A stretch of 19,959 bases of DNA from UHGV virus genome UHGV-1722906; one strand, 5' to 3'. A program made the position numbers and the translations under genes. Shown here one piece after another: positions 2,118 to 19,590 of the stretch. Below the pieces are notes generated by a model. It worked only from the letters and a program-made list of their open reading frames with translations, was not told the DNA's origin and ran no database searches. Position 1 is the first letter of the stretch, and each line of letters opens with the position of its first letter. The stretch is from a virus.

Positions 2118-3974
2118 CTATATGGTTACGCCTTTACTTATAACTCTACGGCGTCTTCTACGTATACCTGACGAGTTCTGCACATACACATTACCTCGCA
2201 TTTCCTGTTCAGCAAGCCAGTCAAAATTAGGGTTCAGAATTTCCATCGCGGCAGTTGCATAGTTACGGCAATCAAGAGGCTCGTTACGCTCGTAGACTTT
2301 CACCCACTTTTCTTTTGTCTGCCCATTTTTATATTCAAATATTTTTTTCTCTGATAATAGCCCTTTAAAATAATCAGTATCATATCCTCTGTCAGAATCT
2401 AATGGAAAATGCATATAACCAGGACCAGGATCATGTAGCTTAATTCGTGCCATGATGGTCCCTTTACCATCATCAACCCCCAAATTAAACAACATAGCAC
2501 CTACACGGTTATTATTGCTTGGCTTTCCTATAAACGGTAAACCTACCCCACCACGACCTCTGATAGAGTATATTCGCCTTGATTCTCGCGGCTTAGTAAA
2601 GCGATATACCTCTGTCGTAAAATGCCCACCAGAGTCAATACAAACGGAAGAAATCTGTAATTTTCGACCGTCACGAAATGACCAGCTACGGAGTAAGTAT
2701 TCATCAAGTTGTTTCCAGACAACATCTTGTGCGGGATCGCCCGGAAATATTTTATATTCAATCCCCCATGATTCCTTACCTTTTCCCCAACCGACCAATT
2801 CACAAACTAAATACGTGTCCTGTACGTCAACACCAGCACTTAACAATAAAACATCATCTGGTAAAAACTCTTCAAACCTTATTCTGCGTTGCAACAAGTA
2901 TTCAGGATCGATATCGTCTTTAGCATCCTCTTTCCATGGCTCACCCAGCTTAAGGTTAATAAACTCCATTAATCCATTTTTATCGCGGTTTCTGGTTGCT
3001 TCCGTAAATTCTTCAACCAGCTCTGACAATGCAACCCACGGGGAGTAAAGACTGTTAATATGAAAACCAACAATACCTTTAACTCCAGTATGTTCAGCTA
3101 TCCATACCCCCTTCGCCAACCAATCAACGTCTGGTTTACCAGATCCGCGCATAATCCCGCCGCACTCACAGCACTCATATCTGGCCGTTTCCGGTAACGC
3201 CTCACCTGAATCGCTCTTATCCCATCTGACTTGCGACCATTTCATCACCTGCATGGTGCCACAACATGGGCAAGGAACATGGTAGTAACGCTGATCGGAG
3301 AGCTTAAACCACTTGTGGATTTTGCTCGTTTCCTCCAAAACAGGAGTAGAAACAAAAACTTTCTTACGATTATGAAAGTTGGTAGTACGCTGAATACCTA
3401 GTTTTAGTGGGTCGCCCTCCTGCGTCACACCGTAACGATCAATCTCATCAGCTAACAATATTCGAATTGGCCTGGATGCAAGACCTGCTGGGGAATTAGC
3501 ACCAACAAGTGCTATATATCCACCAGCGTAATGTTTCATACGTATAGTCGTGCTGGACTTTTTGGCTGCACCGCGCCCCTCTTTCCCTTCATGCAGCTTG
3601 TGTTTCAAACCAGGGGAATATTTGAACGTCGGATCAATACGCTCTTTTGAAAAAGCCTCAGCCGCCTCTACCGTTGGATAAATCATCAACTGAGGAGATG
3701 GCTCCTGATCTGCAAAGTAACCCATAACATTTAGCTGTAATTCGGATTTACCAATTTGCGAGCTACATTGCATCACTACTGTTTCTGTATCAGCGTCACC
3801 AATAACATCCATTGGTTCACGCAAATATGGCACTCGGCTTGTACGCCACGGCCCTGGCTCTGGAGACGTTCCCGGCGCTACATGACGATACTTATCAGCC
3901 CATTCGGAAACAGTTAGCCGTGATTTAGGGCGAAGCGCACGGAAAAAAGCGGTGCTCCATACTGTTTCGCCCAT
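2118..3974 (-). CDS. Terminase large subunit (lambda gpA-like)
   Basis: 618-aa ORF with a cysteine cluster HVPCPCCG...CCECGG like the lambda gpA ACPHCG region. Lies between the small terminase and gpW-like genes. Confidence 0.9.
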   Translation of the reverse strand: MGETVWSTAFFRALRPKSRLTVSEWADKYRHVAPGTSPEPGPWRTSRVPYLREPMDVIGDADTETVVMQCSSQIGKSELQLNVMGYFADQEPSPQLMIYPTVEAAEAFSKERIDPTFKYSPGLKHKLHEGKEGRGAAKKSSTTIRMKHYAGGYIALVGANSPAGLASRPIRILLADEIDRYGVTQEGDPLKLGIQRTTNFHNRKKVFVSTPVLEETSKIHKWFKLSDQRYYHVPCPCCGTMQVMKWSQVRWDKSDSGEALPETARYECCECGGIMRGSGKPDVDWLAKGVWIAEHTGVKGIVGFHINSLYSPWVALSELVEEFTEATRNRDKNGLMEFINLKLGEPWKEDAKDDIDPEYLLQRRIRFEEFLPDDVLLLSAGVDVQDTYLVCELVGWGKGKESWGIEYKIFPGDPAQDVVWKQLDEYLLRSWSFRDGRKLQISSVCIDSGGHFTTEVYRFTKPRESRRIYSIRGRGGVGLPFIGKPSNNNRVGAMLFNLGVDDGKGTIMARIKLHDPGPGYMHFPLDSDRGYDTDYFKGLLSEKKIFEYKNGQTKEKWVKVYERNEPLDCRNYATAAMEILNPNFDWLAEQEMRGNVYVQNSSGIRRRRRRVISKGVTI

Positions 3975-3979
3975 GAGGT

Positions 3980-4532
3980 TTATTCTTCCTGCTTAATAAA
4001 TCGGGATTCCTGGAGCGCCTGAAGCGCAAAATTAATCTCGTCTTCAATAATGCGTTCGATCTCCCTGGCTGTTTTGCCTTCACAACGGGGAGCTGCTCTT
4101 GGAGCAATACTAAATAAGCGGCTACGCAATTCATTAGCTGCCAGAAATGCATCATCCCTGACCGCATCTTTAGCGATGAGAGAGCCTTCCTTTTCTTCAA
4201 ATTCAAGGCGTTTCAGCTTTGCCTGATAAATTTTTTCTGCGGTCTTAGCCTTGTTGAATTGCACCGCAACACCGGAAGTACCACCAGCTAATCCGGCATC
4301 ATCAGCGGGTAACTCTGGTTGTTCCGAAGATATCCCATGCCCTCTTTTTCCGTTTTCAGCAGATACCTCACGACCAACCTGTCGGCTCGCTTCATAAGCC
4401 GCACTAGCTTTATCAAAATCCAGCTTGCCGCTTTTCAGCACTGGAATGCGACCGGAACGACAGAGCTTCGTAACCATTGCCGGAGAAATACCTTTCCGGC
4501 GGGCAAACTCTGACTTACTGACGATGGCCATT
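3980..4532 (-). CDS. Terminase small subunit with N-terminal HTH
   Basis: Track ORF 3980..4540 begins with TTG. The ATG at about 4532 (MAIVSKSEFARRKGISPAMV...) overlaps the stop of the upstream ParB-like gene as TAATG, so it is the more likely start. N-terminal helix-turn-helix and a charged coiled C-terminal half are typical of Nu1-type small terminases. Confidence 0.7.
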
Positions 4533-5121
4533 ACTTGCAACCATTAGCAAGATACTGAACAAATCCCTCATGAGTTTCATGCGCGTCGTGGTACTGACGA
4601 TAAACATCCAGCAACAATGCAATTTCCATATCCGTCGCGGGAATACGTTCTTTATCAATAGCCAGGTACTTAATTTGAACAACAGGGGAAGAATTATCGT
4701 CTTCTTCCTGCGGCTGTTCATCGCTTAACATTTCGTCAAGCTCTGCATCATTAAACCCAAGCAGATCAATATCAAAATCATCATCCATTAACGCTTTGAC
4801 TTCTTCGGCCAGAAGCTGCATATCCCAGCCAGCATTTAAGGCCAGCTTGTTATCTGCAATCCTGTAAGCCTTCTTCTGTTTTTCAGAAAGGTTACTCAAC
4901 CGAATCGCTGGAACTTTATCCATTTCCAGAATTTCGGCTGCTGCAAGCCGCCCATGCCCCGCAATCAGTTCATTCTTTTCATCGATCAGCACAGGATTAG
5001 TGAAACCGAACTCACGGATACTGTTCACCAACTGTTCAACTTGCTCATCTGAATGAGTCCGTGAATTTTTGGCGTATCTGAGCAGCTTACCGACTGGTAA
5101 ATATTCGATTTTTAGAGCCAT
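4531..5121 (-). CDS. ParB-like nuclease domain (ParB/Srx fold) protein
   Basis: 196-aa ORF with motif LIDEKNELIAGHGRLAAA, matching the GxxR box of ParB N-terminal domains. Stop overlaps the terS start. Confidence 0.75.
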   Translation of the reverse strand: MALKIEYLPVGKLLRYAKNSRTHSDEQVEQLVNSIREFGFTNPVLIDEKNELIAGHGRLAAAEILEMDKVPAIRLSNLSEKQKKAYRIADNKLALNAGWDMQLLAEEVKALMDDDFDIDLLGFNDAELDEMLSDEQPQEEDDNSSPVVQIKYLAIDKERIPATDMEIALLLDVYRQYHDAHETHEGFVQYLANGCK

Positions 5122-5678
5122 TTTTTAACCGCCATAACACAACAGGTTAAAGAAAACTGTTTAACTTATTGATACTAAAAGAGAAAAATGACGATCTTTT
5201 TACTCATAAAAAATCACACAAACCAGCATAATCATCTGATTTTATTAAGTTTTTATAAGTAAAAAGGATCTTGATATGGTGTTTTGGTTAAAAGATTGGA
5301 TGTATTTGCATGATTTATAACGATTTTTATCAAAACAGCCTTACATTAGTTAAAGATCTGCGCGTATCTTGATGATCTAAAAGAAAATTTTCTACTTTCT
5401 TTTTACCATCGCAAGCACAGCAAAAAATCACGTTTTCCCAATATTTTTCAATGAGATGAGTAAATTTCTTTTACCGCAACTTTTAACCTAACTTTTTTCA
5501 CGTTTAGCTAGCCGAACATCGGGGTTCGAATGACCCGCATCCAACGCTTTTGGCCAGAAGGACCCAATTCTGCCGGACGATGAAACGATGCTCGTGCTCC
5601 CCCACAGACAGCCAGCGAGCGACGCTACAGAACACAGTGAATACACTCTGCATAACAACACCATCAACCACACGATGA
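5122..5678. promoter_or_regulatory. Long non-coding spacer: AT-rich promoter-like part (about 5130-5480, four GATC sites) plus a GC-rich part (about 5500-5678)
   Basis: No credible ORF; the two track ORFs here are short and Cys/Leu-rich. Sits upstream of the ParB-like/terS/terL operon on the minus strand. Confidence 0.35.
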
Positions 5679-6398
5679 TTAACGAGAGAAGGTCTTAGAA
5701 AGAATGTCATCAATAGCCTTTGTGACTTCATCAGCAAACGCATCCTCACCAGCACGCAGCGCCACGCCATGCCAATCAAGACGCTGCGAATAGTTAGGTT
5801 GCTGGATAAACGTAAGGATCAACGTAGGACGCCGCCCAACGCGCTGCCAGACACCTGGTTGAAGCGGGTTACTTGTACCAGGTCGAACAACAAAAAACTC
5901 CGTAGGCTTGCCCTGACGGCGATTTTGATGCGCATCTCGCTGAACTCTTAGGCCAGATAAGACCTGCTGTAATTGCCCCCGCGAAATATTCCCGTATTTG
6001 TCCAGCTTTGCGCCGGGACCAGGAGCAAGCTGCCAGCCGTTAGGCAAATATCCACCAGCCCTTAGCGCCCCTTCTGAGCGTTTGTACTGTCGTTGGCCAC
6101 CTTCGATTTGCGGAGTCAACGTTACAGGGGCTGGCGTTCCTCCCCATTCACGAGCATACACAATGGCTGTAGGATCACTCTTCTTTGCGGCCAAAACGTA
6201 AGTAGAGTTCTGAATCCACGGCGTGGGCCTGTCAAATACCCGATTAATTTCATTCTTAATCGCAGCCTGAGAAGCCTTTGCCGTTCTGGTTGCCGCAAGC
6301 GCCATTGCGAACGGCAATTCGCGTTCTTCAAGGCGCTGGAGTTGTCGTTGAATATCCTGAGAAGAAAAATCCATCTTTATCTCAATTCTGTCAGCCAC
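5679..6398 (-). CDS. Hypothetical protein (239 aa), function unknown
   Basis: Long ORF on the same strand as its neighbours, between the two ParB-domain genes. No motif I recognise. Confidence 0.55.
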   Translation of the reverse strand: MADRIEIKMDFSSQDIQRQLQRLEERELPFAMALAATRTAKASQAAIKNEINRVFDRPTPWIQNSTYVLAAKKSDPTAIVYAREWGGTPAPVTLTPQIEGGQRQYKRSEGALRAGGYLPNGWQLAPGPGAKLDKYGNISRGQLQQVLSGLRVQRDAHQNRRQGKPTEFFVVRPGTSNPLQPGVWQRVGRRPTLILTFIQQPNYSQRLDWHGVALRAGEDAFADEVTKAIDDILSKTFSR

Positions 6399-6414
6399 CA
6401 GCGCCTCCTACACA

Positions 6415-7794
6415 CTACTTAATCAACGGCCGGAAAGCCGCCAGCACATCATCAGATCGTCCGATTGTTGAACCACCAGGCAACGGCAACTCAAACTCAA
6501 AACGAACAGCTTTCTCCAGACTCGCCCAACTAAGGGAATCATCGTTAATGACGTGCAAATACCAGCTCTTACAGTTGAATATTGACCGCTTAATCCTGAA
6601 ACCATGTACACGACACAACTGCTTCACTTCATCATCAGAGTGAAACTTCTGGTAAAACCAGTGCCCCTTCCGGTACAACGCGGTAAAACCGTTATGATCA
6701 ATAAAATAAAGCCGGCTTTTGGAACTCGCCGCTTGTGTTTGCTTCAGGACTGTTTCCAGCTCTCCACGGCTACGACCAGAAAAGAATATTGACCCACCAG
6801 CTTTACACAGGCCTTTTAGAACCGTCAGAACGGACCATTCAGCCTCGACACTATCGACCGAGTTCAAAACGCTATCGCAAATCACGTAGTCGTAACGCCC
6901 TCGCGTTTTTAAGTCGTCCACCAGCGTATCAATCATCCGGTTTGTTGCGGCCCTATCCAGAGTGTTTCCAGCGCCCTTACGGCGGAAAAGCTCGAGATCA
7001 TGCAGGTTATATCCCTTTGCCCTGAGCATTCGCGCGTAGTCTCCCTGCCCCGAACCAAAATCAATTCCTCTTGGCGTCTTGGCAATGATCGGGAGGATCA
7101 ACGACTCATACAGGTTTGATTTCAGGCTGCCACCATTACGCAACCGCATAAGCTGCGCATACGTCTGGATGTATGTTGTTTTCTCCAGATGAGAATACTC
7201 AAATACACCATAAGTTTTATTCAGATAACTTTGGTATTTTTCCTTCTCAACATCAGGGATCACAAACACCGTTAGCGGTGTGCGCGTCATCTTCGCTGCT
7301 AATGCATACTGAGCACAGTGAATAACCTCGCCAGACTGAGTAGCAACACAACCACCCCACGGACCATACTTGATAACCAGTTCCGCTATGTTCTTTCGAA
7401 CATATGCCATTTTCGCGCGCATATTGCCTGAGATCTGGCTTGCCGATACCTGAACAAAACCATGCTTATCTTCCAGACCGGACACCCTGCAACGCTCATC
7501 TCCGCTATCAAAATCCGTTCCGTTATGCAGTTGGTTAAACCGTACTTCGTCGTATACCGTCGTTTCACAGGGCAACACATACACCGCAGCACGCGTTATT
7601 CCCAACTTACGTAGCGCCTTCGTCCTTTGGTGTCCCGCCACCAGCAAATCGCCGCGCACTATCAATGGCTTCACAAGCCCCAGCTCCCTGACGCTTTCCG
7701 CCAGCCTCGCAAGATCATCCTCACCGATAAAACGCGGGTTATATTCCGCGCCACGTAGGTGCGTTATGTCGTAATTGAGGTGAAGCATCAGCAC
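6415..7794 (-). CDS. ParB-like N-terminal domain fused to a class I SAM-dependent methyltransferase
   Basis: 459-aa ORF. N-terminus has LLVAGHQRTKALRKLG (ParB/Srx box). Centre has GIDFGSGQGDYARML, a glycine-rich SAM-binding motif I. I could find no DPPY/NPPY or PCQ motif, so the substrate is uncertain. Overlaps the upstream ParB gene by 7 nt. Confidence 0.75.
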   Translation of the reverse strand: MLMLHLNYDITHLRGAEYNPRFIGEDDLARLAESVRELGLVKPLIVRGDLLVAGHQRTKALRKLGITRAAVYVLPCETTVYDEVRFNQLHNGTDFDSGDERCRVSGLEDKHGFVQVSASQISGNMRAKMAYVRKNIAELVIKYGPWGGCVATQSGEVIHCAQYALAAKMTRTPLTVFVIPDVEKEKYQSYLNKTYGVFEYSHLEKTTYIQTYAQLMRLRNGGSLKSNLYESLILPIIAKTPRGIDFGSGQGDYARMLRAKGYNLHDLELFRRKGAGNTLDRAATNRMIDTLVDDLKTRGRYDYVICDSVLNSVDSVEAEWSVLTVLKGLCKAGGSIFFSGRSRGELETVLKQTQAASSKSRLYFIDHNGFTALYRKGHWFYQKFHSDDEVKQLCRVHGFRIKRSIFNCKSWYLHVINDDSLSWASLEKAVRFEFELPLPGGSTIGRSDDVLAAFRPLIK

Positions 7795-8411
7795 ACCTCC
7801 CCAGCCAGCAATGCGGATACAAATCCGATATAGCTGCCATTATCATCAACATAACGAGACACCGCGCAGTCAAAACGATCCGCTTCCTCATCCGTTGCCG
7901 GGATTTTATGACCTCCAAATGACAGGTACTGAACTTTTACGCCTGATTTGGCCTCATCCTTCTCAAATGGGATATCCATACCCTCTGTGTCATCGTAGAC
8001 CGCCGCACTCAATAAGTTATCCAGTTCGCGCTGAGTAAAACCAATTGAGTCCAGAGCAAAATCATCGGCCGCAAGATCTGCAAGCTCCGCGCTTAACAAC
8101 TCTTCATCCCAACCAGCATTCAGCGGAATACGGTTGTCGGCCAGACGATATGCCTTCTTCTGATTCTCCGTTAGCCCAGCCAGAACAATGCAGGGAACAT
8201 CATCCATCCCCAACTGAGTGGCCGCAGCAATTCGACCATGACCAGCAATTACAACGTTGTTCTCGTCTATCAGGATCGGATTAGTCCATCCGTACTCCTG
8301 TATGCTGGCAACAATCTGATCTACCTGCTCCACGGAGTGTGTGCGAGCGTTCTTTTCATAACCAATCAACACAGAAAGTGGTAAAGAAACCACATTAAGA
8401 TGTTTTGTCAT
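7788..8411 (-). CDS. ParB-like nuclease domain protein (paralog of 4531..5121)
   Basis: 207-aa ORF with motif LIDENNVVIAGHGRIAAA. Colinear with the 196-aa protein through shared blocks such as KNxRTHSxEQV, TENQKKAYRxADN and LNAGWD. Confidence 0.75.
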   Translation of the reverse strand: MTKHLNVVSLPLSVLIGYEKNARTHSVEQVDQIVASIQEYGWTNPILIDENNVVIAGHGRIAAATQLGMDDVPCIVLAGLTENQKKAYRLADNRIPLNAGWDEELLSAELADLAADDFALDSIGFTQRELDNLLSAAVYDDTEGMDIPFEKDEAKSGVKVQYLSFGGHKIPATDEEADRFDCAVSRYVDDNGSYIGFVSALLAGEVC

Positions 8412-8645
8412 GCCGTTTATCCGCTAAAATCCCCTCGCTTGTGCAAGCAAGTGGGCCTCGGTTTGTATCCACGGCACCCTGTGGGTATGAATGACTGTCG
8501 TCAGGTCGCAACTGACGGCGGTCGCCCACCTTCCAGTAATAAAAAAGCCACCAGCATTAACTCCACAGCGAGCTGGAGTTAATGAGGCAGCTTTGGTTTG
8601 CGCATTATCGCAGCCCCTGATAAGCACAAGAGCTGCTGTAATGCG

Positions 8646-9056
8646 TTACGCAGGGATCAAACGGAGGCAGCCGTTATTTACCTCAATACGAGAGTATTCC
8701 GGCTTACCATCAACGATTCCGGTAATGACAAGTTCGCCATCAGACGAGCATTCTTCTTTGTCGTCTTCAAGTACCGCGCCTTCTGGCAAATCAACACAGG
8801 CAAAAACAGGGCAGCCAGGATAACGATCATCTTCCATCGCAATCAGCATCGACTCACCGAACCACTCTGTGGTAGCACGGCCATCAGCCGCCTGATAGTG
8901 AATCAGATACTGGTTTTCGCCATTTGCATACTGAGCACGGGCTTGAACTTCTCCCCATTCGTCACTGATACGCATTGTTACCAGTTGGGATAATTCAAAC
9001 TTAAACGGAACAGACTCTGCACCAATGGCAATCGGTTTATCTTCTTTCTTTTCCAT
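8646..9056 (-). CDS. Strongly acidic hypothetical protein (136 aa)
   Basis: Track ORF is 8646..9125, but the ATG at 9056 is preceded by AGGTGA and lies just downstream of a terminator, so I take 9056 as the start. About 27 Asp+Glu against about 12 Lys+Arg. Confidence 0.5.
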   Translation of the reverse strand: MEKKEDKPIAIGAESVPFKFELSQLVTMRISDEWGEVQARAQYANGENQYLIHYQAADGRATTEWFGESMLIAMEDDRYPGCPVFACVDLPEGAVLEDDKEECSSDGELVITGIVDGKPEYSRIEVNNGCLRLIPA

Positions 9057-9068
9057 AACATCACCTGA

Positions 9069-9096
9069 AAATAAAAAGCCCCGCGACACCGCGAGG
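9069..9096 (-). terminator. Rho-independent terminator (GC hairpin plus U-run on the minus strand)
   Basis: Minus-strand RNA reads CCUCGCG-GUGU-CGCGGGG followed by CUUUUUAUUUU, about 10 nt after the stop of the 54-aa ORF. Confidence 0.6.
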
Positions 9097-9105
9097 CTGT
9101 AAGAG

Positions 9106-9270
9106 TTACTTTCGATAGAAATCAAGGCGCATTTGCTCCCGCTTAAGCCGAAAAGCTCTCTGCGCCACTAAGATGCGCCACAGGACACCAGCAATAACCA
9201 CCAGCGAGATACAAAAACACACGGCCACAACCATCAGAAAAATGCCAACACCATTCATGAAACTATCCAT
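9106..9270 (-). CDS. Small predicted membrane protein (about 54 aa)
   Basis: Below the ORF-track size cutoff. My translation is MDSFMNGVGIFLMVVAVCFCISLVVIAGVLWRILVAQRAFRLKREQMRLDFYRK: one hydrophobic helix then a basic tail. Followed by a terminator. Weak ribosome-binding site. Confidence 0.35.
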   Translation of the reverse strand: MDSFMNGVGIFLMVVAVCFCISLVVIAGVLWRILVAQRAFRLKREQMRLDFYRK

Positions 9271-9461
9271 TCTTCAATGAATATCTCCAGTAATGTCAAG
9301 AGATACGCCGTCCCCAGCGCGGTTCCTACCGATATAGCTAAGACAAACCTCAAAGATAACGAGGTGTCTTTCGCTTTTCTCCAGACGTAAGCGCCAGCCA
9401 GAAATACCAACAAATCTCTTATTGGAAGCGGAAACCAGAACAAATCACTCGGCAAGTCCAC
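9255..9461 (-). CDS. Small predicted membrane protein (68 aa)
   Basis: GTG start 2 nt after the upstream stop, preceded by GGAAGGA. Two hydrophobic segments (LLVFLAGAYVW, FVLAISVGTALGTAYLLTLL). Confidence 0.5.
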   Translation of the reverse strand: MDLPSDLFWFPLPIRDLLVFLAGAYVWRKAKDTSLSLRFVLAISVGTALGTAYLLTLLEIFIEEWIVS

Positions 9462-9463
9462 GG

Positions 9464-9919
9464 TTATATCCTTCCATTCATTTTTATCGGATGACCAGAT
9501 AGCCTTACGCAGTTGAGCTGTAAAGCTCCGGTATCAACTAAATAATCAACTAACATGATTAGAGATTCATATTCAGCCAGATAGCTAACCTGACGCATTC
9601 GACCGCCGTTGTTCTCCAGAATGTCGGCCACCTTTGCAGCCAACTCGCTTAGACAGGAGAACTTATTCCCATATATCGTTTTATACTCGCGCTTCTGGCA
9701 TTCTTCGGCTTGCGGCTGGTTATCGAGAGCTATCAGCGACCGATAACTATCAAGGAAGTCCACAATCTCATTCAGGCACTCTTTGGCTGCCTCATCGTGA
9801 CTTTTTCCGTATGCTTCATGGAGGACTTTCATCCTCATCATTGCTCCGTCACACATAATCGAAAGCGCGTAAAGCACATCACTAATCGCCATTTCTTTTT
9901 TGGTGCTTGTCGAAGGCAT
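9464..9919 (-). CDS. Hypothetical protein (151 aa), function unknown
   Basis: ATG preceded by AAGGAG at good spacing. First gene of a three-gene operon with the two small membrane proteins. Confidence 0.6.
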   Translation of the reverse strand: MPSTSTKKEMAISDVLYALSIMCDGAMMRMKVLHEAYGKSHDEAAKECLNEIVDFLDSYRSLIALDNQPQAEECQKREYKTIYGNKFSCLSELAAKVADILENNGGRMRQVSYLAEYESLIMLVDYLVDTGALQLNCVRLSGHPIKMNGRI

Positions 9920-10194: not shown

Positions 10195-10460
10195 TCATCA
10201 TCTCCTGCCGCACATACAACCTCACAAAAAACATCAGCGGAATGTTTCTCCTTGAACGAATGACGCTCAAAACCGCACTCAATATCAGGCGCAAAAACAT
10301 CCACCACATACGGTCTTTCAGAATGTTGGTTTTCCCAACGATAAACCGTAGTGACGTTGAAATGTTTTAACGCTTCACGGAACTCAACGCTGCCCGTCAG
10401 GTTTTTTGAGGTCAGGTATTGCAGGAGGTTTTTTACTACTTCACGGTCTTGTACTTTCAT
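10191..10460 (-). CDS. Hypothetical protein (89 aa)
   Basis: ORF downstream of an AT-rich promoter-like stretch (about 10540-10580), overlapping the next ORF by 4 nt. Confidence 0.5.
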   Translation of the reverse strand: MKVQDREVVKNLLQYLTSKNLTGSVEFREALKHFNVTTVYRWENQHSERPYVVDVFAPDIECGFERHSFKEKHSADVFCEVVCAAGDDE

Positions 10461-10581
10461 CGGGTTATCTCCGGTTTAACCAGGGCGGGTATCGCTCGGT
10501 TTCGGGTATAACCTTAGGAAATTTTTTCCCACCTGTAAAGCATTTTTTATATAAATATATAATTATATAATTCTATGAGCA

Positions 10582-12731: not shown

Positions 12732-13580
12732 TTAATGTTGGAGTGATTTCCAGGTCTTTCTTAGCCTGTTATAACGCTGCTCAACGAGGGATCGTAAATA
12801 TGCAAGGTCAGCACCAGGATACATGCCATCAGCAAATTCCTGGCTAACCTCTCTAGTGATTTGATGACGAAGTTCGGCCTCTCCCTTTTCCTGAACAAGA
12901 CGCGCAGCTCTCTCCGCTGCTTTCTGTTTTGCCTTTATCTCTCTGGCCGTCTTCCTCTGACGCCATACATTCTCCATCTGCTCCTGAATAACAATACGCT
13001 TATAATCAGCCTCCGTTATCGCTTTTTTAAGCCGTTCGCTATTCTTCGCATTGAAGTAATTAAGTTTCTGGCTAACCGCACGTCTCCATGCTTGTTCAGT
13101 AATACCAACGGTTTCCAGCAGTTGATCACGAATCTCTATTTTCGCTGGCCAATACTGTTTATTCACCCGATCCCAGCGACGTTCATAATCAATAAAACCT
13201 AACGCTTTCAGTTGCGACAACGCCCTTGTACAGCGCGTTATAGACTTGTTCCCAGCTTCGGATACGGTAGACAGGCCGCAAAAATCAGCCAACGCCTCAG
13301 CACTAGCCAGAACCCGCTTAGAAATGATGTTTACATGGTGCAAAATCGCAGCGATCACAGCATTAATCGCCCGACGACGATGCTCGTTTATCCGGCGCTT
13401 CCGCTCTGACGGTTGATTAACGTAGAACGCAACCTCACACGTAAGATCACGCCCATTAATGCGCTGTAAAGCATCAGATAACACCAGCGGCAGCTTGTGC
13501 GTATGGTGCTTTGGAGGCTGGAACTCCGGCGACAAATTACAAACGTAAGCTGAACGTAGAGACGGCATTGGTCTATCCAT
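12732..13580 (-). CDS. repA: Plasmid replication initiator RepA (IncFII RepA1 family)
   Basis: From the ATG at 13580 (MDRPMPSLRS...) the protein is 283 aa and aligns by eye with R100/R1 RepA1 as I recall it, with RRRAINAVIAAI at the same residue positions as RRRAIDALLQGL and SITRCTRALSQLKALGFIDY against SITRATRALTFLSELGLITY. The track ORF extends to 13709, but those 43 extra codons overlie a terminator hairpin and are probably leader, not protein. Confidence 0.85.
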   Translation of the reverse strand: MDRPMPSLRSAYVCNLSPEFQPPKHHTHKLPLVLSDALQRINGRDLTCEVAFYVNQPSERKRRINEHRRRAINAVIAAILHHVNIISKRVLASAEALADFCGLSTVSEAGNKSITRCTRALSQLKALGFIDYERRWDRVNKQYWPAKIEIRDQLLETVGITEQAWRRAVSQKLNYFNAKNSERLKKAITEADYKRIVIQEQMENVWRQRKTAREIKAKQKAAERAARLVQEKGEAELRHQITREVSQEFADGMYPGADLAYLRSLVEQRYNRLRKTWKSLQH

Positions 13581-13589
13581 ATGTTCGCT

Positions 13590-13702
13590 CTTGCGTCCAC
13601 GGAAAACCAACGTATAATGGGAGTTGTCGAGGCGCCCATGGTTAATTGTTGGTTTTCCGTGGATGTCGCAAGAAGCCCGCAGATTTATCTGCGGGCTTTT
13701 TG
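13590..13702 (+). ncRNA. Candidate CopA-like antisense (countertranscript) RNA over the repA leader
   Basis: Plus-strand promoter-like TTGCGT-16-TATAAT (about 13591-13618), a long imperfect inverted repeat (13598-13615 with 13646-13663), and a perfect terminator hairpin AGCCCGCAG-ATTTA-CTGCGGGCT plus TTTTT (13674-13702). It is antisense to the repA 5' region and nothing on the plus strand is coding here. Confidence 0.4.
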
Positions 13703-13890
13703 TTTCCATATCTGGTCACTTTCCAACCAGACACCCACAATCATAACCACGTTACGTGGTTTTAAGAGAACTCTACCACAACACTTTCGGTCATGCACGA
13801 AGTCTCTCACTGATCGAACGATAATCCACCAGTAAAAGGATCTAAATTGGATCTCGTTTTGCGAGCATCATACTACTGGCCTAACTCCAG

Positions 13891-14445
13891 TCAATGATTC
13901 CCAGCCGGAAACCTGCGGTAAAGCGTGGATAAGGTAACATCGAAGATAATCGCTATCCGCTTACGTGAAACACCATTCGCAATAAGCCTTCCGATCTGTT
14001 CCCATTGCTCTGGTGCCAGCTTTGAGCGACGTCCTCCTATCCTGCCGTTAGCCCTTGCCACCGCCAATCCTGCACGCGTTCTTTCAATCATATTTTCCCG
14101 CTCCATCTCTGCGACTGCACTCAGCATCGTGTAGGCAAAGCGGCCAATTGAAGTGCTAATTTTTATCCCTTCCGTAATCGAAATAAACTCAATGTTGTTT
14201 GATAAAAAATGGTTAAGTAAATCAACAAGATGAATCAGAGAACGCCCCATTCGGTCCAGCTTCCAGACAATAACCGTATCGCCCGGCCGTAGCACCTTAA
14301 GTAGCTTATCAAGCCCTGGCCGTTTTGATTTAGCACCGGATATTTTATCTTCAAAAATCCGGTCACATCCTGAACTCCTGAGCGCCTCCAGTTGTAATTC
14401 CAAATTCTGGTCAAAAGTTGACACCCTCGCATAACCATATTGCAT
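13891..14445 (-). CDS. pin: DNA invertase, serine recombinase of the Pin/Gin/Hin/Cin family
   Basis: 184-aa ORF with N-terminal catalytic motif GYARVSTFDQ and a C-terminal HTH (IAIIFDVTLSTLYRRFP) like the Hin/Pin DNA-binding domain. Sits next to inverted tail-fibre cassettes. Confidence 0.9.
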   Translation of the reverse strand: MQYGYARVSTFDQNLELQLEALRSSGCDRIFEDKISGAKSKRPGLDKLLKVLRPGDTVIVWKLDRMGRSLIHLVDLLNHFLSNNIEFISITEGIKISTSIGRFAYTMLSAVAEMERENMIERTRAGLAVARANGRIGGRRSKLAPEQWEQIGRLIANGVSRKRIAIIFDVTLSTLYRRFPAGNH

Positions 14446-14510
14446 ACTTTCTAAACCGCGATTGTTGCTAAAAGCGGGAAAAAATATCGTTCAGACGACA
14501 CAGAGGCAAT

Positions 14511-14536
14511 TCGCAAAAACCTCGGTTTGCAGGAAA
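14511..14536. other. gix/pix-like 26-bp site A (extra site between pin and the functional left site)
   Basis: Reverse complement reads TTCCTGCAAACC-GA-GGTTTTTGCGAA. Its left half and inner flank are identical to the right site and the start of the expressed variable segment. Core is 49 bp from site B, so out of frame with it. Confidence 0.5.
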
Positions 14537-14558
14537 CGGTAAATCAGGCTTGCCGCCG

Positions 14559-14584
14559 TTATCGAATACCTCGGTTTACGAGAA
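14559..14584. other. Left crossover site B at the start of the silent Sv' cassette
   Basis: Reverse complement reads TTCTCGTAAACC-GA-GGTATTCGATAA; the outer half and about 21 bp of flank (encoding AAVIEY) are identical to the constant side of site R. Confidence 0.65.
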
Positions 14585-15280
14585 CTCGGCACAAGCGGGG
14601 AAAAAATACCGTTACTCAGTACGGCGAATACCTGGACCAATCGACAAACATTCAGTGGTGGCCTTTCTGGGGAACTGTCCGGCAATGCCGCTACTGCAAC
14701 AAAGCTGAAAACAGCACGAAAAATTGCTGGAGTTGGTTTTGATGGTTCTAGCGATATTTCAATTAGTGCCAAAAATGTCAATGCATTTGCACTCCGACAA
14801 ACAGGTAATACTGTTAATGGTGATACTTCCGTTGGATGGAATTGGGATAGTGGTGCATATAACGCCATGATTGGTGGCGCATCTGCATTAATTCTTCACT
14901 TTAATATAAATGCTGGTAGCTGTCCTGCCGTACAATTCCGTGTGAATTATAAAAATGGTGGCATTTCCTACAGGTCAGCTCGTGATGGTTATGGATTTGA
15001 ATTAGGTTGGTCAGATTTCTATACCACGACACGAAAACCATCAGCGGGAGATGTTGGCGCATATACTAAAGCGGAATGTAATTCACGTTTTATTACAGGT
15101 GTTCGTTTAGGAGGCCTGTCATCTGTTCAAACATGGAATGGGCCTGGTTGGTCTGATAAGTCAGGTTATGTCGTTACGGGTTCAGTTAACGGAAACCGTG
15201 ATGAATTAATTGATACAACTCAGGCAAGGCCAATTCAGTATTGCATCAATGGAACGTGGTATAACGCGGGGAGTATTTAA
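14561..15280 (+). CDS. Alternative tail-fibre C-terminal cassette (Sv'-like); promoterless, no start codon, expressed only after inversion
   Basis: Frame open from site B to the stop at 15280 per the track frame (track ORF 14867..15280 is its first in-frame ATG). Translates to ...LGLRELGTSGEKIPLLSTANTW...HFNINAGSCPAVQFRVNYKNGG...IQYCINGTWYNAGSI, a typical side-tail-fibre C-terminal domain. Confidence 0.75.
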   Translation: MEYLGLRELGTSGEKIPLLSTANTWTNRQTFSGGLSGELSGNAATATKLKTARKIAGVGFDGSSDISISAKNVNAFALRQTGNTVNGDTSVGWNWDSGAYNAMIGGASALILHFNINAGSCPAVQFRVNYKNGGISYRSARDGYGFELGWSDFYTTTRKPSAGDVGAYTKAECNSRFITGVRLGGLSSVQTWNGPGWSDKSGYVVTGSVNGNRDELIDTTQARPIQYCINGTWYNAGSI

Positions 15281-15282
15281 TT

Positions 15283-15816
15283 ATGATGCACTTAAAAAAT
15301 ATTACTGCTGGCAACCCTAAAACAAAAGAGCAATACCAGCTAACGAAACAATTTAACATCAAATGGCTTTATTCAGAGGATGGAAAAAACTGGTATGAGG
15401 AACAAAAGAATTTCCAGCCAGACACTTTGAAAATGGTCTATGACCATAACGGCGTTATTATTTGTATTGAAAAGGATGTTTCAGCAATTAATCCGGAAGG
15501 CGCAAGCGTCGTTGAATTACCTGATATTACAGCAAATCGCCGTGCTGACATTTCGGGTAAATGGATGTTCAAAGATGGCGTAGTGGTAAGGCGAACTTAT
15601 ACCGAGGAAGAGCAGAGGCAGCAGGCGGAAAATGAAAAGCAAAGCCTGCTACAGCTCGTCAGGGATAAAACCCAACTATGGGACTCACAGCTACGGCTGG
15701 GCATCATTTCCGACGAGAATAAACAAAAATTAACAGAGTGGATGCTCTTTGCGCAGAAAGTCGAATCTACAGACACTTCCAGCCTGCCAGTAACGTTTCC
15801 CGAACAACCAGAATGA
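15283..15816 (+). CDS. tfa: Tail-fibre assembly protein, alternative copy (Tfa') for the silent cassette
   Basis: 177-aa ORF; N-terminus MMHLKNITAGNPKTKEQYQLTK...[13 protein letters not shown] is homologous to the opposite-strand tfa. Confidence 0.85.
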   Translation: MMHLKNITAGNPKTKEQYQLTKQFNIKWLYSEDGKNWYEEQKNFQPDTLKMVYDHNGVIICIEKDVSAINPEGASVVELPDITANRRADISGKWMFKDGVVVRRTYTEEEQRQQAENEKQSLLQLVRDKTQLWDSQLRLGIISDENKQKLTEWMLFAQKVESTDTSSLPVTFPEQPE

Positions 15817-15820
15817 GAGA

Positions 15821-15848
15821 AGGCCCGATATCGGGCCTTAATTTTTAC
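15821..15848 (+). terminator. Palindromic terminator between the convergent tfa genes
   Basis: Perfect palindrome AGGCCCGATATCGGGCCT followed by TTAATTTTTA on the plus strand. Confidence 0.55.
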
Positions 15849-16372
15849 TCTGGTTTTTGTGGCCATTCCGGCTTTGCCGTATCCACGCGGCTGACCAGAA
15901 CGCTGTAGCGTTCCCAGGCTTCCAGTCGTGTACGTTCCTCATCTGTTGCCATATTCAGCCTGACAGCGCGCTCCAGTGGCTGAATAACGCTTTCCGCTTC
16001 GGAAAGTAACGCGGCCTTTTGTGATTCGGCCTGTTGTTGCTGCTCGTCTGCCGTATAAATCCGTTTAACTACAGATCCGTCCTTAAACATCCACTTACCG
16101 GAATCATCGGCCCGACGATTGGCTGTTATATCGGGGACCTCAACGACGCTAAAACCTTCAGGGTTAAGCGTGGAGGCATCTTTAGTTATGGCAACAATAA
16201 TATTATGTTCATCGTAAACAATCTTTATTGTGTCTTCCTGAAAATTCTTTACCTCTTCATACCAGTTTTTTCCGTCTTCGGACCACAACCAGATAACGTC
16301 AAAATTCTTTGTTAATTCGTACTGTTCCAGTGTTTTAGCGTTACCAGCTTTAATGTTCTTTAAGTGCATCAT
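15845..16372 (-). CDS. tfa: Tail-fibre assembly protein (Tfa) for the currently expressed fibre
   Basis: 175-aa ORF 1 nt downstream of the tail-fibre stop, with the conserved Tfa N-terminus [22 protein letters not shown]. Confidence 0.85.
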
Positions 16373-16373
16373 A

Positions 16374-18986
16374 TTAAACGCTCGCTACATTATACCAGGT
16401 GCCATTTATATACTTTTGAATCGGTCTGTAATAAACACCCGCAATATTATCGGCAGAATTGGAACCTGTATCCTGAACATTAATACCAGACAATACATGA
16501 CCTGACGGGCACTGGAAATTCCATGTTTGCCAGTTGTTTACACCATAATATTGCTGTGAGCCAAGCCGAACATCCTTTACATATCGGGAATCAATGTTAC
16601 CCCAATTGCTTGGTTGTATCTGACCGTTTACAGCAAATATCACCGAGTTATCTGTATTCCGCTGACTATAGAAATGCCAGCCTGAATCATCACCAAGCTC
16701 TGCAACAGTTGGTCTTGACGAATTTCCCCACAAGTTAAATGATGCATTACGGGCAGAGTTATTTGCACTTGCAAGAGTGAATAACTTACTTTCCCCAGCT
16801 TGAATACCCTTTAATGATATTGCTGAACCATTTCTAAAGCGGAATACATGCACACCATTAGCATAAGCATCCAGCACCCCATCACCATTTTGTTTAAACC
16901 CGGTATCGTTATCTCCTAAAACTATTGAATTGCCACCCAGGGCATTAGCCGTTCCAATCCCCAGATTTCCGCTAAAAATGGCATTAATACCGAATATTGA
17001 GTGAGAACAATAAAACCCTCGTCCATTGTTAAAATCCAGAATGGTCTGTACATTTGTGCTTTCTGTCGCGGGATTAGTTGCCCCCCACTTATATCTTGTT
17101 TGATCGATAGTATAATCCTGTGTTGGAACAATAACAGTTAGTCCTTCTTCAGCAAGAATCCGCACAGGAAAAGCCCTGCCTTCAATGTAAAAAACGCTGC
17201 ATACATCATCTTCTTTCATGCTTGTAACGATAGAATGGATTGCGCGTTCATTAGACTGATACGTCGAAAAATAACCTGCCGCATATGAACCACGATCAGT
17301 CCAGCCACCAGGCATTACCATTCCATTGAATTCGCAGTTATTCATTGCGTAATCACCACTGGCAGATGTGGTCGTTATAATCACTCTGGAAGCCAGCTCG
17401 CCAGTGCTGCCTGTGGAACGCCGGAAAATAACTGGATACCACTTTCCACCAACTGCATTAGACGGCGCATTAAATGCGTACTGCCGCATTCCTTTTTTCT
17501 TATCCACCTCGCCTTTGCTGTAAACATTAATGTTACTCAGGAAGCGACCCTTATCAGGAATATCCGCGCCGTTCTGGTTTTTTTGTAATGCGCCAGAAGC
17601 CTGATTTACCGTTTCCTGCAAACCGAGGTATTCGATAACGGCGGCAACGGTCGATTTCGCAAGAATATCCCGCCCGACTTTTGTCAGAGTTGCCAGGCTG
17701 GCGACATCATTCCCCGTAAAATACGGAAACCTGTCTGCCGCAGTGGCAAGCCCGGCCAGTGCGCTCAGCGTGTTGTCTTTCGGTTGCTTACCCGCAAGCG
17801 CGTTAGTCATGGTGGTCGCAAAATTCGGGTCGTTGCCCAACGCCGCAGCCAGCTCGTTCAGCGTATTCAGTGCGTCAGGCGACGAGTCCACGAGGGCAGC
17901 GATCGCAGCCATAACATAAGCCGTGCTTGCGATCTGAGTATTGTTAGTACCTTTTGGCGCAGTTGGTGTTGTTGGTGTTCCGGTCAGCGCCGGACTGTTC
18001 AGGGGCGCTTTCTTGTTCGTTTCATCCATTACCACCTTTACAGCTTTCGATGTCGCGGCCAGTGTTTCAGACGTGCTGTTGGTGGCACTACTGAGCTGAG
18101 TTATTCCCCTTACAGTCAGTGAAGCTACAGGCACATTTGTTATCTGCGCCCACGAATGCGTGTGATTGGACGGAGCCTTTCCGGCCGCAAGATCATACGC
18201 TGCCTTAACAGCCTTTGGTGTTGCTGCCAGCGTTTCAGACGTGCTGTTGGTGGCACTACTGAGCTGAACAATCCCTTTTCGCGCTGTGGTAGCGTCCTGT
18301 GCGGTGTATTTAGCGTTAGCCAGGTCATATGCTGCCTTAACAGCCTTAGGCGTCGCAGCAAGCATTTCAGACGTGCTATTGGTGGCGCTGCTAAGTTGAA
18401 CAAAGCCTTTTGAGGTTAAAGTTGCATCAGGATGATTACGTGATTGCTCATGTTTCACAATGGCTTGCTTAAGCCGCTTTGCTGAAACAGCAAGGGAATC
18501 ATCTGTACCTGCATCAATTTCTTGTTCATTAGCAAATCTTGCCACCCCAACAACAGTTTCGGTCGCGGGAGGATTAATAAACTCAATATCACCAAATGTA
18601 ATATTTTTAGTATCAAGAGTTTTAATTGCTATATCACTTGATATTAAAGCGATAGTAGATGATGCTTTATTTATTATTGCTTGTTCTTGTGAGTATACAG
18701 CAAACAACGTACCCTTATTCGTATACAATCCTATTGTATGGACAACATACTCATCTTTACTATCATCCTTCGCTGTTACATGAATTGTATCAGGGGAAAC
18801 AACTTTGCCACCTATTGTGGTAAGTCGTTTTATTTCGTTTGTTATATTTGTTTGTGAAGTTGACGTGACATAATATCTACTACCTAAACCAACAGAAACA
18901 ATCTCAACTTTATTTGTTCCTGTTTTGTTGGCATTAACCAGCTCCTGACGCCCGGCGTCAGTCATCGTAAATAATAATTTACTCAC
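16374..18986 (-). CDS. Side tail-fibre protein (constant N-terminal part plus currently expressed variable C-terminal part)
   Basis: 870-aa ORF with three copies of the repeat [11 protein letters not shown][TM]LAAT[PS]KAVK and C-terminal motif [13 protein letters not shown]. Contains crossover site R at residues 448-458. Confidence 0.9.
17613..17638. other. Right crossover site R inside the tail-fibre gene (constant/variable junction)
   Basis: TTCCTGCAAACC-GA-GGTATTCGATAA on the plus strand, closely matching the Mu gix consensus as I recall it. Encodes [11 protein letters not shown] at tail-fibre residues 448-458; inverted relative to sites A and B. Confidence 0.7.
18029..18400. repeat. Three tandem intragenic repeats (about 130 bp each) encoding the tail-fibre repeat motif
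   Basis: Near-identical stretches containing GTTTCAGACGTGCTGTTGGTGGCACTACTGAGCTGA recur three times, corresponding to tail-fibre residues about 197-320. Confidence 0.6.
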
Positions 18987-19016: not shown

Positions 19017-19590
19017 TTAGCACTCGCCAATTAATCGTATATAAGACACAGGCTGACAAGCACCAACAATACCGACACCACCAGAAACATCGGCAGCTTG
19101 CGAAAATGTAAATAATGTTCTTGCCGACTTTGCGCTCTTGATACTTCTTAACGTATCTTCCAGCATCTCTTTCGAAGGAACGGCACCATCAAAAGAGTTA
19201 ATCGAAGCAACAATTGAGGCCGTATATGGTTCGCCAGGTGGTGATGTTTCAAACCATTCTGTTATGTTTACCTCTCCACCCAAGCTATTTACTACATCTT
19301 CAACCGCTGCCCTTGTACCCTTTATTCGCTTTGTTCGTATTATTGATTTAAAAACAGAACGATACAGGCCAACTATCCCTCCATGTATCAGCATTCCATT
19401 GCCAAGCTAAATGATCGAGAACAACTGAGTCCAGGTTATCAACAACGCTATATATTTCTGTCTTATATATTAAATTGTTAATTGCTTGTAGTTCATCATC
19501 AATAGCTTTCGACATAGCTATCACGTTGGGATCTCTAGCTAAGTTAGGAGGTAAAACATCCAACAAGCTAACATTAAAGATATCAGCCAT
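19017..19590 (-). pseudogene. Tail protein I-like (P2 gpI / e14 YmfQ family) split by an apparent frameshift
   Basis: Two overlapping track ORFs (19348..19590 and 19017..19394) are colinear with a single P2 gpI-type protein: the first ends ...LAWQWNADTWRDSWP and the second carries ...KRIKGTRAAVEDVVNSLGGEVNITEWFETSPPG, like P2 gpI VNVTEWWENSDPPG. The frame change lies near 19350-19390, next to an A5/T5 run. Confidence 0.55.

Follow-up and report, generated by a model that had tools for sequence, protein, structure and literature searches.

Does the tail-fibre locus of the viral genome UHGV-1722906 form a host-range switch that inversion can throw, as a first-pass annotation proposed, or is it fixed in one orientation beside a dead invertase? 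We analysed the whole stretch of 19,959 nucleotides, called the window below. It belongs to a ~48-kb E. coli phage-plasmid whose RepA is of the IncFII type and whose tail and baseplate are P2-like. The segment as a whole is very probably a Gin/Cin-type tail-fibre inversion switch of the G-segment design, to which a 49-bp duplication has probably added a crossover site.

Gene layout of the segment

The window presents an invertase gene on the minus strand, a silent fibre cassette and its tfa gene on the plus strand, a terminator hairpin and, again on the minus strand, a second tfa gene and the variable part Sv fused to the constant part Sc. This is the gin-S'v-U'-U-S order of phage Mu:

13891-14445, minus strand: serine DNA invertase, relative of Gin, Cin, Pin and Hin (184 aa; Resolvase E = 2.6e-44, HTH_7 E = 2.9e-13)
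14360-14427, strand not applicable: candidate Fis enhancer, placed by equivalence with the enhancer annotated inside P7 cin
14573-15280, plus strand: S'v, silent cassette (~236 codons, lacking its own start codon at the junction; Pfam gp37_C)
15277-15443 and 16212-16378: arms of an inverted repeat (167 nt, 72%), made of the conserved fibre ends and tfa 5' ends
15283-15816, plus strand: tfa gene U' (177 aa; Caudo_TAP E = 8e-36), silent partner of S'v, with the position and length of Mu U'
15820-15839: hairpin, a GC-rich palindrome between the convergent tfa genes
15845-16372, minus strand: tfa gene U (175 aa; Caudo_TAP E = 1e-36), the one now expressed
16374-17624, minus strand: Sv, expressed variable part (~416 aa plus stop)
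17627-18986, minus strand: Sc, constant part of S (~453 aa; three Phage_fiber_2 repeats)

Pfam domains over the segment are Resolvase with HTH_7, Phage_fiber_2, gp37_C and Caudo_TAP (twice), while an Rfam scan over the whole window returned no match. The complete S gene (Sc plus Sv) encodes 870 aa on the minus strand. In S'v, reading frame 2 has no stop between 14543 and the one at 15278-15280; the open reading frame listing gave just 137 aa for this cassette because there is no start codon further upstream. The sizes first proposed, about 240 aa for the silent cassette and about 415 aa for the expressed part (here 17624 to 16377), were accurate.

The two cassettes are homologous over a C-terminal stretch of ~70 aa (38% identity, E = 2e-9) and otherwise unrelated to each other. 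The terminal motif reported earlier does occur at both ends, as the tip of this stretch, with one end reading ...QARPIQYCINGTWYNAGSI before the stop. The last 167 aa of S'v match the structure of Mu S' (8JU3, E = 1.7e-96), and the cassette is found expressed as an Sc fusion in four relatives (L009, L019, L020, L021). The resemblance of Sv to Mu S (5YVQ_A) is confined to its last ~90 aa; as a whole, Sv is 89-95% identical to cassettes of P1-like plasmids and P2-like prophages.

Both tfa products have the features of the Tfa family: a length of ~175 aa, a position directly after a fibre gene, a match to PF02413 and, for U, a full-length match to Mu U (PDB 5YVQ_B, E = 2.4e-106). U' and U share 56% identity, with residues 1-120 conserved and the remainder divergent, much as first described. 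The idea that each cassette has its own Tfa holds in that a tfa gene follows each of them, but it overstates specificity, since the N-terminal domain of Mu Tfa binds the fibre tip (PMC9608196) and this domain is the conserved half of the present pair, whose fibre tips are likewise the conserved part. In addition, two related phages, vB_YpM_41 and vB_YpM_44, differ by an exchange of the tfa pair with respect to the fibre ends, and the 167-nt inverted repeat is a likely substrate of that swap. We found nothing in the literature on the related Yersinia phages vB_YpM_39, 41 and 44. The hairpin is likely a two-way terminator. In the D108 record, two terminators are annotated under the matched U'/U/S'/S region.

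The invertase adjoining the segment belongs to the small serine recombinases: its catalytic domain is N-terminal, a helix-turn-helix lies at the C-terminus, and its identity with Mu Gin and P7 Cin is 54-55%. It shares with both of them Ser9, Arg7, Asp64, Arg65, Arg68 and Met114; the roles of Ser9 and Met114 are described in PMC3575834. The wild-type Met114 suggests that the enzyme depends on Fis. The P7 record places a recombinational enhancer at cin nucleotides 19-86, and the corresponding region of the window is 59-66% identical to that of P7, versus 55-59% further downstream. Neither an alignment to Mu gin and P7 cin nor a scan for conserved G-N13-C 15-mers gave a diagnostic enhancer motif. 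By analogy with Mu and P1, we infer Fis and enhancer dependence, a switching rate and a change of receptor for this system as well.

Crossover sites and the two orientations

Crossover takes place inside the fibre gene, at 26-bp sites with imperfect dyad symmetry:

14510-14535, plus strand: site A, TTCGCAAAAACC TC GGTTTGCAGGAA, the plasmid family's left site; the 16 nt after it match those that open Sv
14559-14584, plus strand: site B, TTATCGAATACCTCGGTTTACGAGAA in full, with halves TTATCGAATACC TC GGTTTACGAGAA
17613-17638, minus strand: site R at the Sc/Sv junction, reading TTATCGAATACC TC GGTTTGCAGGAA on that strand

B and R, like A and R, form inverted pairs; all three sites have the central TC and differ from Mu gix at 3-4 of 26 positions. 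Around B and R, the inverted arms reach 35 nt and are 91% complementary. The bounds first given for the switch, 14559 and 17638, turn out to be the outer edges of two gix-like sites, the first base of B and the last base of its inverted partner R. Site A lies just outside that start and was absent from the first-pass annotation. It is in direct orientation with B, 49 nt away, and its sequence is that of the sole left site of L002, L017 and L019. In site B, the outer half and the preceding 9 nt match the end of Sc, and the inner half is of the S'v type.

From this layout, the late operon would be read on the minus strand via Sc, through a 26-bp crossover site and into the neighbouring variable cassette with its tfa gene; in the present state this would be Sv and U. 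S'v and U' point the opposite way, lack a start at the junction and would lie behind the terminator hairpin. The serine invertase would pair inverted sites, cut at the central TC, rotate and rejoin, and one flip between B and R would turn ~3.05 kb and join Sc in frame to S'v, with U' as helper. Performed in silico, this inversion yields an in-frame S' of 689 aa.

This predicted protein matches a database protein, P0001, at 100% identity along its entire length; P0001 is encoded on three related plasmids (L019, L020, L021) in which positions 14550-17632 of the window are inverted between collinear flanks. The inverted segment is identical to that of the window at 99.7% without gaps in L019 and L021, and at 97.6% in L020; the flanks of L019 and L021 are 98.5-99.95% identical to the window. 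The plasmids L022, L023 and L026, 99.7-99.8% identical to the window, encode the exact 870-aa S in its orientation. Across the two orientations, L019 and L021 on one side and L022, L023, L026 and the window on the other, identity is 99.7-99.95%. Between them, L022 and L019 have four junctions, which are exact reciprocal products of recombination within ACCTCGGTTT, and the exchange maps to the site cores. Comparison of different isolates and samples, rather than of one population, thus indicates that inversion has taken place in the window's lineage. The window and the opposite-orientation plasmids L019 and L021 encode one and the same invertase protein, with Ser9 and Met114 kept, so that neither a fixed orientation nor a dead enzyme describes this locus, and the cassettes are selectable by inversion as the first-pass annotation had it.

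Switching may nevertheless be slow, since the related 48,488-bp plasmid of the ATCC 25922 type has one orientation in three of three independent assemblies (L013, L015, L016; a fourth record, L014, ends before the segment and was left out of this comparison). The E. fergusonii plasmids pRHB23-C01_4 and pRHB23-C02_4, of the same size, share this orientation. A search of PLSDB with a chimeric query (invertase flank, site A and Sv) returned no family plasmid with this Sv; the flipped state, missed there, turned up through the protein search that led to the P0001 plasmids.

Origin of the second left site

What sets the window apart is its left end:

14522-14570, plus strand: extra 49 nt, found in the window and L010/L024 but in no relative (placement ambiguous within the repeated ACCTCGGTTT core)

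The placement derives from alignments to L008 and L022. A single left-end site is found in 20 of the 20 sequence-distinct relatives readable there (12 from annotated records, eight from contig look-ups), versus two in the window. The junction created by the extra nucleotides reads ...AAATCAGGCTT joined to GCCGCCGTTATCG... We did not find it among phages, plasmids, E. coli genomes, genome_contigs or viral_contigs, and metagenome_contigs gave one match. The three-site arrangement is known only from the window and from one metagenome contig (L010, the same as L024; NODE_2883, coverage 2.77); the two have their right end in common, and the contig probably derives from the data behind the window.

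Judged from the sequences, the extra site most likely arose when 49 bp at the Sc/Sv junction were duplicated in tandem and the segment then inverted twice. The duplicated unit would consist of GCCGCCG, the site and 16 nt; inversion would then have passed first through the Sc-proximal copy and next through the other. Run in silico, the duplication and two inversions reproduce the two left sites of the window exactly. State 3 of this series, an L022-like plasmid with the 49 bp perfectly repeated in tandem, would hence lead to the window by two legitimate inversions with nothing else changed. Conversely, taking the 49 nt out of the window restores the arrangement of L022, which differs from it across the segment by these 49 nt and two mismatches. 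A one-step aberrant inversion, or template switching at inverted repeats, was rejected as a source because three template switches would be required.

Could the switch be a plain two-site one, the extra 49 nt being an artefact of low-coverage assembly or of a chimeric read? The window copy does rest on a low-coverage metagenome assembly, the junction occurs solely there and in the low-coverage contig sharing its right end, and isolate plasmids near-identical to the window carry two sites. The window also skips ~15 kb relative to the complete plasmids, leaving them at a repeat of ~120 nt as a mis-join would. However, no k-mer spanning CAGGCTT and GCCGCCG occurs in any of the four legitimate junctions, so an assembler would need a read containing the junction; a De Bruijn mis-join of mixed orientations was discarded on the same ground. 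A random ligation chimera falling within 50 nt of both sites in the correct orientation is very unlikely, and PCR template switching would fall inside the shared core and give normal junctions. We consider an artefact unlikely.

A slightly less probable alternative is that the third site is real and imported, a piece made of Sc end, site and S'v from an S'-expressing phage having replaced the old left cassette, with an illegitimate left join 16 nt into that cassette and a homologous right join in S'v or U'. Left cassettes of the family often start with the same 16 nt (L001, L002, L013, L017, L018), plasmids and P2-like prophages with a short S'v are common donors, and the segment is mosaic. 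Against this, import requires an illegitimate join with a mere 'TT' microhomology plus a second crossover. Moreover, the 28 nt past the centre of site A and, at B, the 21 nt covering the Sc end and the outer half-site match the window's own right junction, at positions that vary among relatives, and the close agreement of L022 across the segment, apart from the 49 nt and two mismatches, likewise counts against import.

Whatever its source, the third site may allow non-productive inversions, as far as the reading frames go. In silico, inversion between B and R switches between two working fibres, and inversion between A and R puts the 49 nt inside S and shifts the frame. Should the three sites be more than a neutral scar and act as a functional switch with four states, two of them fibre types and two 'fibre-off', flipping the spacer into S would generate a plasmid-prophage subpopulation with fibre-less particles or none; we regard such a role as very improbable.

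The state of this copy raises a further possibility. An 8-nt deletion splits and frameshifts gene I, the P2 gpI-like baseplate gene, and together with the ~15-kb skip this makes the window perhaps a defective element or an imperfect assembly. The copy could then be a frozen relic, a decaying plasmid-prophage whose switch has no host-range consequence, with the skip as a genuine 15-kb deletion and the 49-bp duplication as another slippage-type lesion. This is conceivable but rather doubtful: the invertase, both cassettes, both tfa genes and all sites are undamaged and agree exactly or almost exactly with their counterparts in plasmids of both orientations, the lesions may be assembly errors, and virion production is unnecessary for DNA inversion.

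Relation to known switches and significance

Apart from its extra site, the locus is an ordinary switch. It has the gene order and orientation of the Mu G segment, sites 3-4 positions from gix with the same central TC, a full-length match for U and a Mu S'-like tip (167 aa) on S'v; at the DNA level, identity is 88% for U', U and the fibre ends. Unlike in Mu, the invertase is just 54% identical to Gin, Sc is P2-like, rich in Phage_fiber_2 and 453 aa long, Sv (416 aa) is unrelated to Mu Sv save for its last ~90 aa, S'v is ~83 aa shorter, the replicon is a plasmid-prophage and a third site is present. The C segment of P1 and P7 (cin, cix) follows the same principle, with the enhancer annotated inside cin in P7, and the Sv, U, U' and S'v tip of the window recur in P1-like plasmids with 89-94% identity in DNA. 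However, the window has site-flanking repeats of 35-36 nt, an invertase 55% identical to Cin, and a different constant part and tail module.

P2-like E. coli prophages with a Gin-like recombinase by their fibre genes have an identical cassette layout, and their short silent S'v of 237 aa is the same cassette (L005, L006); positions 14831-17900, from Sv to the S'v tip, are 94-95% identical in L004 and in EHEC prophages. These prophages differ in being chromosomal rather than plasmid-borne, in having two sites only, and in their invertases, which are close to Gin whereas that of the window is divergent.

The Min multiple-inversion system of plasmid p15B has six crossover sites and shuffles several coding cassettes. 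The window resembles it in having more than two crossover sites for one fibre gene, so that more than two arrangements are possible, but its extra site brings a 49-nt spacer and no cassette, and the extra arrangements are frameshifted. With three sites and two cassettes, it falls outside the shufflon-like class defined by more than two cassettes.

From these comparisons, the locus appears as an active Mu-type host-range switch of 48-kb IncFII-RepA/P2-like E. coli phage-plasmids, of a design already known, and it adds little to existing knowledge. The S'v tip is Mu S'-like and the body of Sv is unrelated to it, and the two orientations would confer the two receptor specificities first suggested. 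The switch combines a divergent invertase (54% to Gin) with cassettes common to Mu, P1-like plasmids and P2-like prophages. Its recognition helps host-range prediction for these plasmids and also their annotation, since PGAP gives the silent cassette no label or calls it a partial fibre gene. What is new here is the 49-bp site duplication with its two left sites, a small curiosity. If real, it would preserve the trace of two or more earlier inversions and would illustrate how a slippage mutation can come to rest on the silent side of such a segment; non-productive inversions would also be expected, at a rate that can be measured.

Layout of the tail-fibre locus

The tail-fibre gene S, made of a constant part (Sc) and an expressed variable end (Sv), lies on the minus strand with P2-type baseplate genes upstream of it on the same strand. 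Together with the tfa gene U, it faces a silent variable end (S'v) and a second tfa gene, U', on the plus strand, so that the four genes form one block. The order and orientation of gin, S'v, U', U and S in phage Mu are exactly those of the window.

Features of the locus in the window
12732-13709, minus strand: repA, IncFII-type
13891-14445, minus strand: serine recombinase, 184 aa (Resolvase and HTH_7 domains)
14510-14535: site A, the family's normal left site
14559-14584: site B, 26 bp, inverted partner of R
to 15280, plus strand: silent cassette S'v, an open frame without a start
15283-15816, plus strand: tfa gene U'
15820-15839: GC-rich palindromic hairpin between the convergent tfa genes
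15845-16372, minus strand: tfa gene U
16374-18986, minus strand: tail-fibre gene S, 870 aa
17613-17638: site R, 26 bp, inverted relative to B, at the Sc/Sv junction

The first-pass annotation had delimited a host-range switch at 14559 and 17638, which prove to be the outer edges of the inverted sites B and R. These sit within 35-nt arms that are 91% complementary, and differ from the gix site of Mu at 3-4 of 26 positions, with the central TC common to both. Frame 2 stays open from 14543 through to 15280, leaving the silent cassette intact, with about 236 codons past the crossover (about 240 aa had been proposed), and Sv has about 416 codons (about 415 aa proposed). The motif RPIQ-x-(Y/C)-INGTWYN does end both Sv and S'v. 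It caps a region of about 70 aa in which the two are homologous (38% identity, E = 2e-9); elsewhere the cassettes are unrelated. The description of the Tfa pair also holds, with residues 1-120 conserved, the last 55 or so divergent and 56% identity overall. U matches Mu U over its full length (5YVQ_B, E = 2.4e-106) and S'v matches Mu S' over its final 167 aa (8JU3, E = 1.7e-96). The likeness of Sv to Mu S is confined to the last 90 aa or so; the whole of Sv shows 89-95% DNA identity to cassettes of P1-like plasmids and P2-like prophages in EHEC and other E. coli.

The recombinase is 54-55% identical to Gin and Cin and retains the catalytic Ser9 as well as Met114, whose change to Val renders Gin Fis-independent (PMC3575834). 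Judged by these identities, the invertase is divergent relative to Gin and Cin.

Sc also holds three 93-nt direct repeats, 74-83% identical (18019-18411), that encode Phage_fiber_2 repeats. The number and spacing of the latter vary among relatives, whose fibres measure 770, 772, 826 and 870 aa, differences that are partly due to the cassettes. In public records of this plasmid family the switch carries no annotation as such, and PGAP leaves the silent cassette unannotated or calls it 'hypothetical protein' or 'incomplete tail fiber protein'.

The left part of the window encodes a toxin-antitoxin pair, ParB-like proteins, methyltransferases, a terminase and a portal protein. The complete sequences closest to it are non-mobilizable plasmids of 46-50 kb from E. 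coli and E. fergusonii, together with three 49-kb 'Yersinia phages', and the element carrying the window is therefore a phage-plasmid. Three consecutive minus-strand genes (4531-8411) each contain a ParB N-terminal domain, fused in one of them (6415-7794) to a methyltransferase domain. The 5' end of repA (13596-13702) contains a perfect 16-nt inverted repeat with a 36-nt spacer (13596-13611/13648-13663) and a hairpin (13669-13702). An antisense-RNA control region is usual for IncFII-type replicons, and these structures might represent one; Rfam gave no match anywhere in the window.

Orientation of the segment in related plasmids

When the segment was inverted in silico between the centres of sites B and R, the S frame ran on into S'v, yielding a protein of 689 aa. 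A search of a collection of 5.8 billion proteins returned one (P0001, 689 aa) with 100% identity over 100% of this product. Three contigs encode it. In two of these, L019 (48,705 bp) and L021, sequence on either side of the segment is collinear with that of the window (98.5-99.95% identity), and 14550-17632 of the window is inverted, gap-free, at 99.7% identity. The window and both contigs do not differ in their invertase protein, U or U'. Three further contigs, L022 (48,142 bp), L023 and L026, encode the exact 870-aa S in the orientation of the window, at 99.7-99.8% identity. Between L022 and L019, the left and right junctions are exact reciprocal recombinants, with the exchange within the common ACCTCGGTTT core. 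On this comparison of contigs and junctions, nearly identical plasmids carry the same segment in either orientation, and the breakpoints fall where a Gin-type enzyme would cut.

The first-pass annotation had proposed two receptor specificities selectable by inversion, unless the segment were fixed in one orientation and the invertase inactive. The answer, opposite orientations in near-identical plasmids and an in-silico product of B and R identical to P0001, is one at the level of the lineage, obtained by comparing plasmids and not within one culture. The rate of inversion may be low, since three assemblies of the related ATCC 25922-type plasmid share a single orientation.

The element presents the recombinase, the inverted sites, the in-frame fusions and the two orientations of Gin/Cin-type inversion switches, an enhancer and a change of host range being predicted by analogy; it works like the G segment of Mu, the C segment of P1/P7 and the invertible segments of P2-like prophages; it is not of the Min multi-cassette type.

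An additional left crossover site

A single left site is present in every one of the 20 sequence-distinct relatives whose left end could be read, and the total is two sites wherever both ends were readable. Annotated records supplied twelve of the 20 (Mu, three P2-like prophages, five family plasmids and three Yersinia phages), contig look-ups the other eight. The window has two left sites, A and B, in direct orientation and 49 nt apart; against L022 and the plasmid CP099184.1, it simply has 49 extra nt. CP099184.1, the nearest relative in PLSDB as regards the left half of the segment, also has an IS3-family transposase inserted in the variable part of its expressed fibre gene (8435-9663).

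After site A come 16 nt that exactly match the start of Sv, then 7 that exactly match the end of Sc, and then site B, whose outer half is the Sc-side half-site and inner half the S'v-side one. Such an arrangement could have come from another phage, by import of a piece 'Sc end - site - S'v', but we regard this as improbable. The junction reads AAATCAGGCTT joined to GCCGCCGTTATCG. Apart from the window, it was seen in a single metagenome contig, retrieved twice (OLRK01002883.1; ERZ1742772 NODE_2883, coverage 2.77) and probably not independent since it ends at the same base. This could suggest an artefact. However, the k-mers of the junction are absent from every legitimate junction, so an assembler could not have invented it, and we consider an artefact unlikely, if slightly less so than import.

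Applying inversions in silico between A and R, and then between the left site and B, converts the window into a plasmid with the left end of L022 and a perfect 49-nt tandem repeat at the Sc/Sv junction. The repeat unit is GCCGCCG, the site and ACGGTAAATCAGGCTT, with the imperfect repeats AAATCGACCGTT and AAATCAGGCTT on either side. The window is therefore what duplication and two inversions would be expected to leave: a 49-bp slippage duplication would have arisen within S, an inversion through the Sc-proximal copy would have carried it to the silent end, and a second inversion, via the other copy, would have returned Sv to Sc. On this duplication reading, the sequence would record at least two past inversions.

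In silico, recombination between B and R toggles two intact fibres of 870 and 689 aa. Recombination between A and R, and the state that follows, insert the spacer in S, which then ends prematurely, at 526 or 493 aa. Gin and Hin require inverted sites, and 49 bp are too short to loop, so deletion between A and B would not be expected. The third site is probably accidental; that it supplies selected 'fibre-off' states seems to us highly implausible. The switch is of the known Mu G-type design, with a divergent invertase and this third site.

Eight nt present in L019, L021 and L022 (AACGCTTT, between AACG repeats) are missing from the window after 19357. The loss splits a P2 gpI-like baseplate gene (193 aa in those contigs) into 19348-19590 and 19017-19394. 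Tail assembly may be impossible for this copy, or the error may lie in the low-coverage assembly. Besides, a repeat of about 120 nt spans 10457-10577. It is the region upstream of a gene, starting at the ATG, and complete family plasmids have two copies of it about 15 kb apart (at about 33.3 kb and 0.8 kb in CP057727.1). The window joins both places, skipping about 15 kb, and the metagenome contig follows the other branch; the skip reflects either a deletion derivative or a mis-join in the assembly. The copy is either a decaying derivative or an imperfect assembly, and in neither case is the anatomy of the switch affected.

Pairing of fibres and Tfa proteins

In layout, each cassette is followed by its own Tfa, as first described. 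According to a passage of PMC9608196 citing the 5YVQ work, the N-terminal domain of Mu Tfa binds the distal fibre, and trimerisation is thought to be driven by the C-terminal helices. The conserved parts in the window are the N-terminal domains of U and U' and, likewise, the fibre tips they would bind. Between the Yersinia phages vB_YpM_41 (3304-4508 of its record) and vB_YpM_44 (4804-6007), only the central tfa pair is inverted and the fibre ends stay in place. Since these parts are conserved and the tfa pair inverts alone in relatives, the pairing of cassette and Tfa may not be strict. The window has an inverted repeat of conserved fibre-tip and tfa-5' sequence (15277-15443/16212-16378), and inversion of the tfa pair in the Yersinia phages presumably proceeds by homologous recombination between such repeats. 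In these 49-kb phages, inversion of the tfa pair creates new combinations of fibre and Tfa.
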